Shown piece by piece: positions 42,569-48,630 of a stretch of DNA of 64,000 nt (position 1 is its first letter; each line of letters opens with the position of its first letter). The notes below the pieces were generated by a model. That model ran no database searches. It was not told the origin of the DNA and worked only from the letters and a program-made list of their open reading frames with translations. The DNA lies in NCBI GenBank assembly GCA_050331235.1, contig JBHJHA010000060.1, positions 10,235 through 74,234 of the forward strand. Reading direction: 5' to 3'. The position numbers and the translations under genes were made by a program. The stretch comes from Leptolyngbyaceae cyanobacterium (GTDB lineage: Bacteria; Cyanobacteriota; Cyanobacteriia; Phormidesmidales; Phormidesmidaceae).

Positions 42569-43663
42569 CTATCCGCCGTAAATAATGGCGTCAAATAGGA
42601 CGTAGCGCTCTTCACCAATATTGAGAAAGACGCGATCCCCCTGGCGGGTACTGCTAAATGCTCCAGAGCCCCCCTCGACCTGGACGGGATTGCCATTCTC
42701 AAAGTAGACGGTAAAGGTGTTGCCGTACTGGGTGGTGATATCGACATAGCCACTGCCGTTGCCTTCGCGGACGACTCCGAAAGGACACTCTCCGTTGGCC
42801 TCAGCTGGGGTCATAGCGCAGGCGATCGCACCCGTCGCGTTATAGCTGGTGCCTGGGACGATGGCGTCTCCTGGAGAACTGCTTGCTCCCGCATTACCGC
42901 CTCCAGAAATGATCATTTCTAATCGATAGTTGGCTGCTTCCTCGCGGCGGGCGGCACTGCGCATCAAATACACGCGCACTTTGTAATCGCCGGTTTCGGG
43001 CAAGCTGCCTTCGTACTGATTGCCATTGATGGAGCCGTTGAAGATGGCCTCGTCATTGCTGCCGGGGGGCAAAATATTGAAGTAGTTGGCGGTATTGTCA
43101 GTCGCCATGCTGATGTTGGCATACTGACCGGCTTGCGCGTTCAGCACATAATCGATGGTGTTGTAGCCAACGATGGTGGCTTCGACGGTAGCGCTGGTGG
43201 CTCCGGGTTGAAACTGAACACGCTGCTTGGGAATGCCGTCTGAACTAGGCTGGCTACTGACAGGGCCAGAGTTGGATGGCGGTGCAGAGCTGCTTGACTC
43301 TGCTGTAGGTGCGGCCGCAGTTTCTGATGAACTGCCTGATTCGGCGAGAGTACATTCAGTCAATATGATCGCGTTGTTGACCTCAACGACTGCCTTTTCA
43401 CCGTCGATCAGGAGTTTGGTACTGCCATCGCTATAGGTGGTGCCAGAGTCTGACTCGACCAGCGGCAAGGCTAGATTTGGGCGATCGGGCAAATCAGCAA
43501 CCGCTTCATTTGGCGATAGGCGAGCCGTAAACTCGGTACCGCCTTTGCATTGGTACGTTACGAGTGAGCCTTGGCCGGTTGCGGTGTTGGTGTCGGTATT
43601 ACAGCCCAATAAACAAAATGATGTGAGCAAACCAGCACTCACTCGAAAAGATTGGTTCTTCAT
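42569..43663 (-). CDS. Lipoprotein: MliC-like + PliG-like + uncharacterised C-terminal domain
   Basis: Lipobox LLGC; YQC..SDSGTTY..EC (MliC-like); VQFQPG..LPETGDYKVRVYLMRSAARR (PliG-like); C-x10-C tail domain. Confidence 0.8.
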   Translation of the reverse strand: MKNQSFRVSAGLLTSFCLLGCNTDTNTATGQGSLVTYQCKGGTEFTARLSPNEAVADLPDRPNLALPLVESDSGTTYSDGSTKLLIDGEKAVVEVNNAIILTECTLAESGSSSETAAAPTAESSSSAPPSNSGPVSSQPSSDGIPKQRVQFQPGATSATVEATIVGYNTIDYVLNAQAGQYANISMATDNTANYFNILPPGSNDEAIFNGSINGNQYEGSLPETGDYKVRVYLMRSAARREEAANYRLEMIISGGGNAGASSSPGDAIVPGTSYNATGAIACAMTPAEANGECPFGVVREGNGSGYVDITTQYGNTFTVYFENGNPVQVEGGSGAFSSTRQGDRVFLNIGEERYVLFDAIIYGG

Positions 43664-43798
43664 GGGTGTTCTCAGTCTCAAGTTGCTTGTGATCAAACCG
43701 CTAGGGCTCTCACCCAATGCTTGTTATCAGGTGAGAGCCGTCACGCATGACCGGGTTTGCCAGAGCTACCGCAATGGCGTCTACTAGCTTTGGCTTGG

Positions 43799-44398
43799 TT
43801 ACTCAGGCAAGGGTCGATCAATGGTGCTGGCGGGCAATCCAGGCATCAACACTGGACCGTCGCTGGTCATCTCAACTTCGTAAAAAACGCGACTTTCTCG
43901 CGATGCACAGCACAGGGCGTCTTCACGACTGTAGCGGTTGAACGAGGCATCGATAGCGCCATCGCGATAGAGGTTGACGTCAAAGAGGCTACCGTCGGTA
44001 CGGGAGTCCATCAGGTTCGGTGACAGCGTGCCGGCGAATTCACCATCGACGAAGACAAAGGTCTGATAGCTGAAGGGGCGACACATCCCGTCGGCATCAG
44101 CCATGCCAGTGATTACTGTGGTGTCACCAAAGATGTAAGCCGGTCCAGAGAGGGACCATCCCGCCGCTTCAACGAGAGCATCTTCATAGAGTCGGGACTT
44201 ACGAATCGTTTGCTCACACTCTGGCAGGTTGGAAAATTCTGAATTGGGCGCTTGAGGAATTTCGGCACCAGCGACATTCCAGTTGGTGTCGCCGTCGAGC
44301 CAGGTACCGTCTTGGCTGGTTTGGGCTGAGGTGTGGGGCGCTAAGAGCAGAGACGCCAGCACCATAGAGCCAGAAATCAAAGAGACTGTTTTCATCAT
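43799..44398 (-). CDS. Secreted LppP/LprE-like protein
   Basis: Signal peptide; DGMCRP..YQTFVFVDGEFAGTLSP..SRTDG..RY..DALCCAS. Confidence 0.7.
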   Translation of the reverse strand: MMKTVSLISGSMVLASLLLAPHTSAQTSQDGTWLDGDTNWNVAGAEIPQAPNSEFSNLPECEQTIRKSRLYEDALVEAAGWSLSGPAYIFGDTTVITGMADADGMCRPFSYQTFVFVDGEFAGTLSPNLMDSRTDGSLFDVNLYRDGAIDASFNRYSREDALCCASRESRVFYEVEMTSDGPVLMPGLPASTIDRPLPE

Positions 44399-44502: not shown

Positions 44503-45165
44503 CTAGTCTATGCCCGTCACGACGATTTCATCGAGGCGGAAAAACTCTTCGTCATTGATGTTGATAAAGTACTGACCGTCTAAATACTGGGTTTGCAAAT
44601 TGTCTCCTGGATCAATTGCGTGCAGCGCACCGCCATAAAAGGCCAAGTGGTGCTCAGTGCCCGTGACTCCGTACAGGGTTAGGCTGGAGTTGCCCGGATC
44701 GCCAAAAATGACGTCAGTCTCACACTGGCTGTCGTAGGTGGGGGCCACAATGGAACAGGGCACCCAACCACCCCCACGTTGGGGCTCATTAATAGCAGCA
44801 GTGTTAGCGCTCGTCTCGCCACCGTCCCAGTACACAAAGATCGAGACATCGGCGAGGCGATAGATAGTGCCAATTTCCCCCAGGCCATCTTCGCGTATGG
44901 CTCGTTGCCCATATTGATCGGTATAGGTGTTGGCCTGATTGGGGTCGGGGACCAGTTCGTAGGTGGTCCCATCCTCAAGGGTAAGGGTGACAAAGCCCTG
45001 TCGCTGAGAAAAGGTGCAAGGACCATAGCTAGTGGCGGTATCTTCGCCGATGGGATACACGTCACAGCGGGCTTGGGCCGTATCGGCTCGAGCACTCGTG
45101 GCGAGCCCCACCGTGGCGATCGCGGCGCACAACGATACAGAGAAAGTAGACAAACGAGACATCAT
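44503..45165 (-). CDS. Secreted two-domain hypothetical protein
   Basis: Signal peptide ..ARA; ARCDVYP..PCTFSQRQG domain; C-terminal C-x10-C domain. Confidence 0.75.
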   Translation of the reverse strand: MMSRLSTFSVSLCAAIATVGLATSARADTAQARCDVYPIGEDTATSYGPCTFSQRQGFVTLTLEDGTTYELVPDPNQANTYTDQYGQRAIREDGLGEIGTIYRLADVSIFVYWDGGETSANTAAINEPQRGGGWVPCSIVAPTYDSQCETDVIFGDPGNSSLTLYGVTGTEHHLAFYGGALHAIDPGDNLQTQYLDGQYFININDEEFFRLDEIVVTGID

Positions 45166-45386: not shown

Positions 45387-47378
45387 TCAGTTTTGAGGCA
45401 GTAAAAAGTCAGGTCGTAGAGCCGGTACACAGGTTTGGTTGAGTGGGCGATCGGGCTGGGTGAGAAACTGCTGGATCAGATCTTGAGCACACGGGGAATA
45501 TTGCAGCGTGATGTGTCCTGCACTGGGTAAAAATACAAATTGGCTGTTGCTTAAGGTGTCCGCTGCCAGCCGAGACCAGTTGGCGGGTGTCTGGGTATCG
45601 TAATGACCCGCTAAGACCAGCGTGGCAATGTCGCTGACCACAGGTGCTTGTTCGATCGCATCCGGCGTCCCCGCAGCGAAGCCATCGCAAATGGCAAAGT
45701 AACTCGCCACCGTATCAAACGGGCGACGGAGCGGCACTAGTGGCAGCGCCTGATAATAGGCCCAAGCCTGGCTCAGATCTTCGAAGGGCACTTCCTCCTG
45801 GCACTGGACGGCATAGTGCATCCCTTCGGCAATTTCGCCATAAAAGCGCGGCAGGGGTAGATCGGCGATCGCCAATGCAGAAAAAATGGCGTCTACATCG
45901 GCCTGACTCAGCTCCATCGTCAACGACATCAGGGATGCCGGTGGCGGCGCTTCCAGCGACAACCCAAAGTTGAGGAAATTGAGCAGTAGCGTCTGGGTCT
46001 GAGGTACGTCGTGGCGGCCCATGAGCGAGAGCAAATATTCCGCTAAGTAAAGCCCGCCAGGGGAACGGCGATCGCTGATTTCCTGATACACCTGGGCCAG
46101 CCACTGATCGGCCAATGGCTGCCCCGTCGTCGGTGGATCGGCCAGCGGTGGAGTGCGATCGGTGGGCGCTGCTTCAGTCGGAGCGTTAATGATTTGCTCG
46201 ATGTAGGTGGTGCCGTCTCCCTGGCTAAATTCCTGCAGGATCAGGGGCAGGGTGGCGGCGAGCTGCGGGTTGCGATTGAGGCGCCCAAACAATTCAGCGA
46301 CAGTGTCGGCATTGACTATGATGGGCTCCGGTGCACTGCTAGCTAAAGTCAGCGGCGTCTGATCTAAGGTAGCGGCCAACGCTAAATAGGTGCTCCGCAG
46401 GTGAGGAAAGGCGGCATGGCAGGCTGCGTCCGTCTCGCAGTCGGTGAAAAACTGTTCGGCGGCGATCGCCGCCAGCCCCGGGGTGAACTCATTGGAATCG
46501 ATGTTAGGCGGCTCAACCGAATCTAAAATCACGCTGCGGATGCCGCTATCGGGAAAATCGCGCATGACCGTCAGCGCCAACCGCGTTCCGTAGGAAACGC
46601 CCAGCAGATTGTACTGGTCGTAGCCTAGCGCCTGTACCAACGCCACAACATCGGCAGCACTGCGTTGACTGTTGTATTGAGCTAAGTCAACCCCGCGATC
46701 ACGCCAAAACTGGCTGCACTGCTGTAGCGAGCTGTAGCGAGGCAGTTGGCGATATTGGGCGACGTATTCCGCCGGGGTAGTCGCAACTTGAGGGTCAATA
46801 GCTGCAGCTACCACCAACTGGGTAAACACCGTCAAAAAGTCATCAATACTGCCACCGGCTTCGAGTAGAGGTAAGACTGCCGGTGTGTAGCAGTCGAGAG
46901 CCTCAGAAAAGGCGGTGCCGCGCTGGGCGATCAAAACCACATCCCGTTCAGCGCGAATGTCGCTGAGCCAGTCGGCGTAGCTGTGTACTGCATAAAAAGG
47001 ACTGCCGCCGGGACCGCCCTCGAGCCACACCACCGGATCAGCGGCGGGGCGATCGCCCGTGGCATGCAACACCAGATAAGACACCTGTATGGAGCGGCTG
47101 GTGTCTGGCTGCTCCCAGTTTTCCGGCACGGTTAGCTGACCGCAGGAGACTGCTCCCAAGTCACTGATATCTACCGGACAGTCAATGGAGCTCAGGCTGG
47201 TTGACGCCCATGCCGTTGAGGTTTCTGGGAGATTGGCTGCCCCCAATACTCCGCTGATTAGCAAGCTGGGCCAGCCCAGCCGCGCCATCCATCCTAAGGG
47301 CGATCGCACTTGCTTTGAGCCTCCGGTAAACGCGTTCATCGCGGGATCTGGTGGACGCTGCCGCCGATCGGGGGACAC
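45387..47378 (-). CDS. Exported alpha/beta hydrolase (TAP-like peptidase)
   Basis: CGQLTVPE, LEGGPGG, nucleophile GVSYGT, YDTQTP, AGHITL; true start uncertain. Confidence 0.85.
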   Translation of the reverse strand: MSPDRRQRPPDPAMNAFTGGSKQVRSPLGWMARLGWPSLLISGVLGAANLPETSTAWASTSLSSIDCPVDISDLGAVSCGQLTVPENWEQPDTSRSIQVSYLVLHATGDRPAADPVVWLEGGPGGSPFYAVHSYADWLSDIRAERDVVLIAQRGTAFSEALDCYTPAVLPLLEAGGSIDDFLTVFTQLVVAAAIDPQVATTPAEYVAQYRQLPRYSSLQQCSQFWRDRGVDLAQYNSQRSAADVVALVQALGYDQYNLLGVSYGTRLALTVMRDFPDSGIRSVILDSVEPPNIDSNEFTPGLAAIAAEQFFTDCETDAACHAAFPHLRSTYLALAATLDQTPLTLASSAPEPIIVNADTVAELFGRLNRNPQLAATLPLILQEFSQGDGTTYIEQIINAPTEAAPTDRTPPLADPPTTGQPLADQWLAQVYQEISDRRSPGGLYLAEYLLSLMGRHDVPQTQTLLLNFLNFGLSLEAPPPASLMSLTMELSQADVDAIFSALAIADLPLPRFYGEIAEGMHYAVQCQEEVPFEDLSQAWAYYQALPLVPLRRPFDTVASYFAICDGFAAGTPDAIEQAPVVSDIATLVLAGHYDTQTPANWSRLAADTLSNSQFVFLPSAGHITLQYSPCAQDLIQQFLTQPDRPLNQTCVPALRPDFLLPQN

Positions 47379-47511: not shown

Positions 47512-48630
47512 ATGATTCAGGCTTATTTGGTGCCCATCGAGGAGGCCGCTTTCGTTTTCTTTGGGCTGGCGGTGCTGCTGCTCATCCCCATTTGCGCAGT
47601 GCACTATCGGCGGTTTGGCTACGTTATGCCGTCCCGCGCTACGGTGTTTTATTCGCTGCTGTTTTACAGTCTGTGTGCGGTTTTTTTAGTGAGTCTGCCG
47701 CTGCCGACGATCACGGCGGACTTTTGCGAGGTGCATACTCTGGCGCGTCAGGTGCGCCTTACCCCATTTCAGTTTGTGCCCGACATCATTTTGGGGAACC
47801 AAATTACCCTGCGGCATTTCAACCTGATTTCGATGTTGGTGAGCTCGGTGTTCCTCCAGGCGTTTTTCAACTTTTTGCTATTGATGCCGCTGGGCTTTTA
47901 CCTGCGGTATTACTTCAATTTGGGGTGGGGAGGAGCTGCTGCGATCGCCCTCGCGGTGACGGGACTGTTTGAGCTATCGCAAATCACGGGGTTGTTTGGC
48001 TTCTATCCCTGTCCCTATCGCACCTTTGATGTGGATGATCTTATTCTCAATACCGCTGGGGCTTTGGTGGGTTACGGGACGATGCCGTTTTTCAGTGCCC
48101 ATCTGCCCAATCTGCAGGCGCGCCATGCGCCGCCGGTAGCCGTGTCTTGTGGGCGACGGTGGGTGGCGTTTGCTGTGGACTGGTTTTTGGCTAACAGTGT
48201 GTCTCGGCTGCTGGGGGCGCTGCTGCTTGGGCTGCATACGCCCCATGCACTTTGGCTGGACGGCTTGGTGTATGGTCTGTGGTTTGTCGGGGTGCCGAGT
48301 TTGTGGCAGGGGCGCACCGTGGGCAAAGCGCTGGTTAATATTCAGCTTGTGCAGTCTTCTGGGCAACCGGTGCAGCTGAGTCAACTGGCACTGCGTTATG
48401 GATTGTTGCTGGGGCTGCCAGTGCTTACGGAGGTGGCGTTGCTGCATCAGTTATCAGAGCAACAGAGAGGATGGATCACGATCTCGCTCTTGATACTTCT
48501 AGTTCTAGAGGCGATCGCGCTAGCTGGCCTCATGCTGGTTCGCCCAGACCATCGGGGACTACATGATCTCATGGCTGACACTCATCATCACGTTCTCGCA
48601 TCCCGCCAGCAAAATACCGTCAGCCTCTAA
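47512..48630 (+). CDS. VanZ + RDD domain membrane protein
   Basis: FNFLLLMPLG, FELSQITG..YRTFDVDDLILNTAG (VanZ); RRWVAFAVD, TVGK, GLHDLMADT (RDD). Confidence 0.88.
   Translation: MIQAYLVPIEEAAFVFFGLAVLLLIPICAVHYRRFGYVMPSRATVFYSLLFYSLCAVFLVSLPLPTITADFCEVHTLARQVRLTPFQFVPDIILGNQITLRHFNLISMLVSSVFLQAFFNFLLLMPLGFYLRYYFNLGWGGAAAIALAVTGLFELSQITGLFGFYPCPYRTFDVDDLILNTAGALVGYGTMPFFSAHLPNLQARHAPPVAVSCGRRWVAFAVDWFLANSVSRLLGALLLGLHTPHALWLDGLVYGLWFVGVPSLWQGRTVGKALVNIQLVQSSGQPVQLSQLALRYGLLLGLPVLTEVALLHQLSEQQRGWITISLLILLVLEAIALAGLMLVRPDHRGLHDLMADTHHHVLASRQQNTVSL

Follow-up and report, generated by a model that had tools for sequence, protein, structure and literature searches.

Work on lysozyme inhibitors has centred on single-domain proteins with which animal-associated bacteria evade their hosts, and most members of the MliC family are small single-domain proteins according to excerpts of PMC2267010. 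What, then, would a cyanobacterium do with a predicted lipoprotein in which two such families are joined to each other and to a third domain? The question is raised by an open reading frame (ORF) within 64,000 nucleotides of a Leptolyngbyaceae cyanobacterium genome (assembly GCA_050331235.1, contig JBHJHA010000060.1, positions 10,235 to 74,234 of the forward strand), hereafter the window. From N to C terminus its product comprises an MliC/PliC domain (domain 1), a PliG domain (domain 2) and a domain of an unnamed family (domain 3). The gene is real and conserved, and the fusion of the two inhibitor families is solid. We consider it probable (roughly 0.6) that the product is a lipid-anchored, periplasm-facing, multi-target muramidase trap. 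A fusion of this kind in a cyanobacterium, and a PliG subfamily common in bacteria of soil, sediment and water, would show such inhibitors to act on environmental attackers or on enzymes of the cell itself; the role of MliC outside animal hosts was already raised as a question in 2008 (excerpts of PMC2267010).

A first-pass annotation of the sequence had described a lipobox LLGC, three domains, a Ser/Pro/Ala linker and a C-x10-C pair, and every quoted motif is in place, the segments given for domain 2 falling at residues 149-246. The lipobox reads L18-L19-G20-C21, with G20 and C21 kept in 19/21 aligned sequences, the other two being N-terminally truncated; signal peptide, lipobox and Cys+1 at LLG-C21 together predict a bacterial lipoprotein. 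A longer frame is available from a TTG at 43717, and the ATG at 43663 was taken as the start because homologue starts agree with it. The AlphaFold model of the full protein (21 sequences; mean predicted local distance difference test score (pLDDT) 68.5, predicted template modelling score (pTM) 0.37) contains three confident beta-domains at about residues 31-108, 160-253 and 280-364, with pLDDT below 50 at 1-27, 109-142, 152-155, 255-265 and 270-272. The linker at 107-143 is 73% Ser, Pro, Ala or Thr and shares 8-32% identity with homologues. Among 7996 scored candidates of 200-637 residues, 805 relatives were found at E 0.001 or better; in the best 120 of these (query included), the order 1-2-3 occurs in 20 and 2-3 in 98, one protein combining domains 1-2 with another domain and one reading 2-2-3. 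Three-domain relatives with names include Leptolyngbya iicbica and Leptolyngbya sp. SIOISBB. Because 20/120 homologues share the order and the proportion of non-synonymous differences (pN) between genomes is far below that of synonymous ones (pS) in all three domains, the architecture is beyond chance. The guanine plus cytosine content of the gene region (53-54%) equals that of its flanks and thus gives no compositional sign of recent transfer. Database names for such proteins are only 'MliC family protein' or 'lysozyme inhibitor', which overlook both PliG and domain 3.

Residues 142-250 align with PliG of Aeromonas (4DZG) at E 8e-16, and with the PliG proteins of Salmonella and E. coli at E 2e-7 to 1e-6 (E. 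coli 4DY3, E 1e-6). All six Foldseek matches of domain 2 below E 0.001 are PliG chains (best E 7.7e-9; root-mean-square deviation (rmsd) 1.6), and structure comparison with VIA superimposed it on Aeromonas PliG at Z 16.8 (rmsd 1.4, 109 residues aligned, 38% identity). PliG matches reached Z 16.8 and 12.6, against Z 11.5 for the best PPC domain (rmsd 2.4, 100 aligned, 16% identity). Y167, R235 and R239 align to Y47, R115 and R119 of E. coli PliG (chain numbering from 23); Leysen et al. reportedly found in 2012/2013 that these residues engage lysozyme and that the SGxY motif is dispensable. In the best 120 of the 805 homologues they are kept in 110, 120 and 120 sequences, respectively, counts that similarity ranking of the matches biases upward. 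Neither the GY nor the RxxAR segment occurs in the three PPC-like paralogue domains of this genome for which full alignments were available. Because sequence, fold and residues all lie nearer to PliG, we assign domain 2 to PliG rather than to a generic PPC sandwich; the first-pass annotation, which would have given up its PliG call for a generic PPC domain devoid of the interface residues and inactive in vitro, is upheld in both fold and residues. A gene annotated as pliG, matching domain 2 only (32% identity), is present in two Acinetobacter phage records (CAKLQH020000020.1 and CAKLQF020000024.1); across 50,697 phage records these two matched, with domain 2 only.

For domain 1, Pfam returned PF09864 (MliC) at residues 37-97 with 25.4 bits against a cut-off of 22 (E 1.4e-5; 27.7 bits in a genome search). 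VIA gave Salmonella PliC 3OE3 (Z 10.8, rmsd 1.8, 74 aligned), Brucella PhiA 7DPY (10.4), Brucella PliC 4MIR (10.4) and Neisseria ACP 6GQ4 (10.1), which are tied, and E. coli YdhA 2F09 (9.2). The model has eight strands from E34 to E106, and its cysteines sit on beta1 and beta8 as in the MliC/PliC barrel (C39 in 19/21 and C104 in 21/21 aligned sequences); Y37-x-C39, S71-D-S-G-T-T-Y77 and C104 all lie within it. MliC proteins carry two motifs, SxSGAxY and YxxxTKG, as given in excerpts of PMC5507604. The first, in loop 4, is present (S71 and Y77 in 21/21 sequences, G74 in 19/21) with Thr at the Ala position. The second (YxxxTKG or WxKG, strand 6) is replaced by LLIDG, where Leu takes the place of Trp and Asp that of Lys; the original pair is gone in 16/21 sequences and kept in 5/21, as well as in five stand-alone cyanobacterial MliC proteins. 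Since the second motif is absent, we file domain 1 as an MliC-derived variant and not a canonical member, and its loss makes inhibition of c-type lysozyme doubtful. The earlier description of two inhibitor families plus a third domain, which had considered only the first of the two MliC motifs, thus holds for family membership and is in doubt where it made domain 1 a c-type inhibitor.

The motif change has a history. In a tree of 28 MliC domains, built from a short alignment with a midpoint root, the 22 fused cyanobacterial domains form a single clade (100/99), within which 15 sequences with an LxI[DN]G-type motif group together as derived (99/98), the branch leading to them measuring 0.3 changes per column, and the WxKG sequences are basal. 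After the change, pN was 0.03-0.14 against a pS of 0.63-0.79 in six genome pairs, indicating strong purifying selection, and within its clade domain 1 ranks first or second among the domains in conservation, mostly at 79-95% identity. All 15 matches of the derived domain among 82 candidates of 200-637 residues are three-domain proteins. By these comparisons domain 1 is not decaying; with the motif lost yet purifying selection strong, the simplest reading is that it was probably retargeted to another enzyme. The genome search found no second MliC match in this organism, and three other genomes (G001, G006 and G011) hold the fusion plus a canonical stand-alone MliC.

By analogy, domain 1 could behave like either of two structural relatives with non-canonical motifs. 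Neisseria ACP has neither motif and yet inhibits lysozyme (excerpts of PMC5507604), whereas purified Brucella PhiA, which has no SGxxY, neither inhibited SagA nor interacted with SagA or hen lysozyme (PMC8334348). The PhiA precedent, together with the loss of WxKG in most sequences and the coexistence of the derived fusion with a canonical stand-alone MliC in those three genomes, would favour a protein in which only the PliG domain inhibits, domain 1 being a non-inhibitory binding or scaffold domain and domain 3 a wall- or partner-binding positioner. We regard this as unlikely: S71 and Y77 are invariant in domain 1, which keeps SxSGxxY unlike PhiA (and unlike ACP), the domain is highly conserved under the selection described above, and ACP inhibits in spite of lacking both motifs.

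Domain 3 has no Pfam family in scans that included 80 domain 3 sequences. Its model (80 sequences; pLDDT 93.9, pTM 0.85) has eight antiparallel strands and a short C-terminal helix. Foldseek against the PDB gave no match at E 0.001 or better (PliC at E 0.49), VIA, run over 48,161 chains, none with a Z of at least 8 (the top score went to PagL, one among many generic barrels, with Z 6.3 and rmsd 3.3 over 85 residues), viral models none at E 0.001 or better, the PDB sequence profile a single match at E 4.5, and the ESM Atlas unnamed clusters only, plus one PPC lead under 0.9; these fold searches establish neither a new fold nor a different one. Structural comparison of each domain, which the first-pass annotation had proposed, yielded the MliC/PliC fold for domain 1, PliG for domain 2 and no clear match for domain 3. 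When 1.84 billion representatives were searched by profile, domain 3 turned up in 1181 clusters (50% identity) at E 0.001 or better and 756 at 1e-10, so that the third domain, although present as annotated, is not peculiar to this gene. Near-invariant in it are both cysteines (C282-x10-C293 in the window protein), the G-V-x-R of FGVxR (Arg in 151/153 aligned domains), a second Arg (146/153) and the final Gly pair.

Its architecture was tabulated for 150 proteins listed from the 1181 clusters. Local profiles recognized PliG in 60 of them, SH3b in 30 and no other module in 68; 22/150 have at most 175 residues and a hydrophobic N terminus, a crude mark of stand-alone exported candidates, and a word-index search for stand-alone domain 3 recovered 1/1 candidate. 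Pfam on 87 of the 150, mostly longer ones, returned SH3_3 (26), META (9) and LysM (5), as well as DUF992, crystallin, YsaB and DUF3011, and no catalytic family. Domain 3 is C-terminal in 146/150 and has varied passengers, in line with a positioning role behind a PliG that alone inhibits; stand-alone domain 3 proteins, however, have no passenger to position. The company of YsaB-like, crystallin, DUF992 and DUF3011 domains, in an organism with no evident animal host, would also suit a generic envelope-stress lipoprotein, with domains that are of inhibitor ancestry only and today bind partners other than wall enzymes. This we hold to be the least probable of the readings considered, because neither decay nor repurposing predicts PliG interface residues that are kept exactly.

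The C terminus itself invites another explanation. Of the 146 listed proteins with a C-terminal domain 3, 132 end in GG and 10 in GD, and in the window-protein set the domain reaches the exact C terminus in 200/202 matches, 186 ending in GG. Together with the YkuD L,D-transpeptidase genes found in 14/80 loci, this could mean that domain 3 is an anchoring signal whose free C-terminal Gly-Gly is linked covalently to peptidoglycan by the neighbouring L,D-transpeptidase. Such an anchor seems very improbable: GD ends recur (13/202 and 10/146), one tandem form and a domain 3-META form exist as well, 66/80 loci have no YkuD gene, the window protein is already predicted to be lipid-anchored, burial of the C-terminal carboxylate would account for the pattern just as well, and no precedent was found.

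Two other candidate identities for domain 3 were dropped. Likeness to a Slam-type surface-lipoprotein barrel (NHBA Z 6.1, HphA and TbpB 4.9) does not rise above background, and the 80 loci showed no prominent cluster of Slam-like neighbours; Pfam CFSR (24/80 sequences, best E 1.7e-4) was set aside as short and weak. In four listed proteins (P0191, P0196, P0233 and P0269), domain 3 follows an unnamed N-terminal domain with Cys near both ends and no significant Pfam match, which by eye recalls the MliC barrel. P0028 has, by eye, an unnamed, tandemly repeated cyanobacterial module in place of domain 3; modules of this type also occur at L101:7-801, L103:11194-11892 and G000:C107:15172-16074, adjoining domain 4-SH3b genes (domain 4 is described below).

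The 80 loci come from a scan of GTDB genomes in which at least 547 stretches were confirmed, and they span Cyanobacteria, Alpha-, Beta-, Gamma- and Deltaproteobacteria, Bacteroidota, Acidobacteria and others. Domain 3 is present in 76/80 and the three-domain form in 1/80. The PliG-domain 3 pair spans many phyla, and the addition of MliC was seen in cyanobacteria only within the sets examined. Judged from these sequences, this PliG subfamily is usually paired with domain 3 across phyla, MliC being a lineage-specific add-on. The parts also occur apart: PliG and domain 3 are separate adjacent genes in L063, in L026 and L044 individual PliG and domain 3 genes come after the fusion, and an LprI-MliC gene lies within the PliG-domain 3 locus of L015. 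At L049:2868-3774, domain 3 of a PliG-domain 3 gene is split over two frames (a frameshift or an assembly error), and the gene was omitted from the alignments.

Closer to the window, the full three-domain gene occurs in 3/13 other same-genus genomes (4/13 less than 90% complete) and is absent from the 11 other genomes of the family that were searched, and the fusion occupies different chromosomal places in relatives. Across the class, domain 3 was found in 12/251 genomes, this one included, with the three-domain form also in two genomes of other families (G100 and G104); an Slt-type domain match was found in 46/46 genomes of the phylum. The patchiness of domain 3 against the universality of Slt therefore fits an accessory defence. 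Plasmid records matched domain 3 in 3 of 72,556 cases.

Genes that recur as neighbours across the 80 loci encode YkuD L,D-transpeptidases (14), domain 4 (9), SH3b (6, fusions counted), META (4) and LprI-like proteins (4). For YkuD, the rough chance expectation is 0.6-2 loci, although the loci are not independent. The YkuD genes near PliG or PliG-domain 3 are of two distinct types, often adjacent and co-oriented, and come from several phyla (L005, L008, L011, L016, L023, L038, L043, L045, L048, L054, L056, L069, L076 and L078). g-type lysozymes and Slt share the GH23 fold. The protein might accordingly restrain the host's own lytic transglycosylase, with domain 2, and perhaps domains 1 and 3, acting in wall remodelling or envelope stress; the excess of YkuD, the fusion of domain 3 to wall-binding SH3b and LysM and the single SLT-family gene of this genome agree with that, and excerpts of PMC2267010 speculate about such a role for MliC. 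We think this improbable, if less so than the other alternatives: a universal enzyme does not match a domain found in 12/251 genomes and a gene found in 3/13 same-genus relatives, the gene sits at differing chromosomal places, and no YkuD or SLT gene lies near the fusion in its own genome.

A multi-target trap would work as follows. The product would be exported and lipidated at Cys21, as the lipobox predicts, and its domains would act independently, like beads on a string, because the linkers are predicted to be disordered and the modules are freely shuffled. Domain 2, which has the PliG fold, would plug the cleft of g-type or other GH23-like muramidases through Y167, R235 and R239. Domain 1, with its Ser loop kept and Lys changed to Asp in the second motif, probably binds a non-classical lysozyme or binds c-type lysozyme differently. 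Domain 3 probably binds a third wall hydrolase through the invariant FGVxR Arg and the C-terminal segment, a role suggested by the company that it keeps. Given that the gene is a patchy accessory, the attackers would most likely be foreign enzymes, from grazers, predatory or competing bacteria or phage. The acidity of all three domains (isoelectric points 4.1-4.6) would suit basic lysozymes. Known members of the MliC, PliC and PliG families insert into the active site of lysozyme (excerpts of PMC7677548).

Several observations weigh against a trap of this kind. The 80 loci contain no muramidase or effector gene recurring beside these genes, so that the neighbourhood points out no target, and the recurrence of YkuD (14/80) fits wall remodelling equally well. 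In 89 locus ORFs, Y167 is kept in only 61 and R235 and R239 in 83 each, figures that lean upward in turn because the locus scan pattern included RxxAR. The SGxY of PliG reads T-G-D-Y here (Ser in 97/120 and Thr in 15/120 homologues). Domain 1 of the window protein has lost the second MliC motif, and PhiA, at Z 10.4 tied with PliC and without effect on SagA when purified, shows that the MliC fold does not guarantee inhibition. An SGxxY loop is not conserved in domain 3: no Ser or Tyr reaches 80% or more in 153 aligned domains.

A wider proposal goes beyond the single gene, and we offer it tentatively, as possible rather than likely: domain 3 would define a so far undescribed inhibitor family directed at peptidoglycan hydrolases (1181 clusters or more in Proteobacteria, Bacteroidota, Cyanobacteria and others), forming with domain 4 modules of a shuffled periplasmic kit from which free-living bacteria assemble multi-target shields against non-animal muramidases, and this lineage would have re-aimed its MliC at a new enzyme. 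That PliG, MliC, domain 3, domain 4, SH3b, LysM and META modules are shuffled as a kit is what their sequence architectures indicate.

Solved PliG proteins (Aeromonas hydrophila 4DZG, E. coli YcgK 4DY3/4G9S and Salmonella 4DY5) resemble domain 2 in fold and in the equivalents of Y47, R115 and R119. Unlike it, they are single soluble domains of 111-114 residues, whereas here the domain lies in the middle of a predicted lipoprotein followed by domain 3, TGDY stands for SGxY, the host is a cyanobacterium and inhibition is predicted only. MliC/PliC proteins share with domain 1 a lipoprotein signal, the eight-stranded barrel, the Cys on first and last strands and the SxSGxxY loop, and differ in having the second motif and no fusion to two further domains. 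Mycobacterial LprI, with its LprI/DUF1311 plus MliC architecture, is likewise a multi-domain lipoprotein with an MliC domain, but has neither PliG domain nor domain 3; excerpts of PMC5507604 call it an MliC-family lipoprotein and no more.

PliG homologues in cyanobacteria were reportedly noted in 2011. Cyanobacterial MliC (COG3895) proteins are mentioned in excerpts of PMC2267010, and the first-pass remark that the protein is unexpected in a cyanobacterium is qualified accordingly; on the fusion we found no paper. No paper was found for PliG, MliC and cyanobacteria together, nor the fusion or domain 3 in any title or abstract start, in a search outside which lie subscription PliG papers, a 2012 review and supplements that may mention cyanobacterial or longer homologues. 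Whether such inhibitors face environmental attackers or enzymes of the cell itself becomes testable in one construct, with three separable domains, a natural swap of WxKG for LxIDG and an orphan family, and two characterised fusion partners suggest a function for domain 3. As leads, the orphan family of domain 3 and the motif swap under selection in domain 1 are worth more than the fusion itself.

Table 1 Features of the three-domain gene and its surroundings, in window coordinates
Feature	Position	Strand	Basis or remark
Three-domain predicted lipoprotein ORF (MliC - PliG - domain 3)	42569..43663	-	364 aa, no internal stops
Signal peptide ending in lipobox LLG-C21	43601..43663	-	Sequence; lipidation predicted
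Domain 1, residues 34-106, MliC/PliC eight-stranded barrel, Cys39 and Cys104	43346..43564	-	Pfam, structure comparison
First MliC motif, S71-D-S-G-T-T-Y77 (SxSGxxY)	43433..43453	-	Alignment; motif per PMC5507604 (excerpts)
Site of second MliC motif, L-L-I-D-G replacing x-W-x-K-G	43400..43414	-	Alignment to E. coli YdhA
Ser/Pro/Ala/Thr-rich linker, residues 107-143, predicted disordered	43235..43345	-	pLDDT <50 at 109-142
Domain 2, residues 144-252, PliG domain	42908..43234	-	Sequence, Foldseek, structure comparison
Domain 3, residues 265-364, unnamed family; C282/C293, FGVxR, Gly-Gly end	42572..42871	-	Profile, AlphaFold model
Terminator-like hairpin and T run, 14 bases past stop codon	42537..42555	-	Consensus match only
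Intervening co-oriented gene, 199 aa, predicted exported, LppP/LprE domain	43799..44398	-	PF14041 E 1.1e-9
Upstream co-oriented gene, 220 aa, predicted exported; domain 4 (~residues 26-115) and divergent domain 3 (133-218)	44503..45165	-	
Predicted exported TAP-like alpha/beta hydrolase	45387-47378	-	PF08386, PF00561; co-oriented, upstream of cluster
VanZ and RDD membrane protein	47512-48630	+	Divergent from cluster

A second copy of domain 3 lies upstream of the fusion, in the 220-residue gene (profile E 2e-7 and E 5.4e-6), behind domain 4, which has two Cys, a CxFSQRQG motif and no Pfam family. Genes with domain 4 stand beside PliG or PliG-domain 3 genes in 9/80 loci and beside the fusion in G011 and G104. 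The domain is found fused to domain 3, to SH3b (L101, L108 and the second copy of this genome, at G000:C107:16138-16851) and to MliC (L104; an MliC-domain 4 fusion in G005). Homology of domains 3 and 4 was considered and is unsupported (hhalign probability 0.4%).

The intervening LppP/LprE gene is possibly a member of the cluster; a homologue (51% identical) lies about 3.3 kb from a PliG-domain 3 gene in 1/80 loci (L003). TAP-like genes also occur in L001 (two copies), L015 and L022. VanZ-like proteins are often tied to envelope stress. Two families of unnamed membrane proteins of about 95 residues were noticed, one beside PliG-domain 3 in 9/80 loci (L017, L034, L038, L040, L042, L043, L047, L051 and L061) and the other in 3/80 (L016, L028 and L033); the one of the two that was scanned had no Pfam match.

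Promoter-like sites are at chance level (3 against 2.6 expected). By eye, the intergenic segment 43703-43737, about 40 bases upstream of the start codon, holds a perfect 10-bp inverted repeat with a 15-base spacer, possibly an operator or an RNA hairpin.

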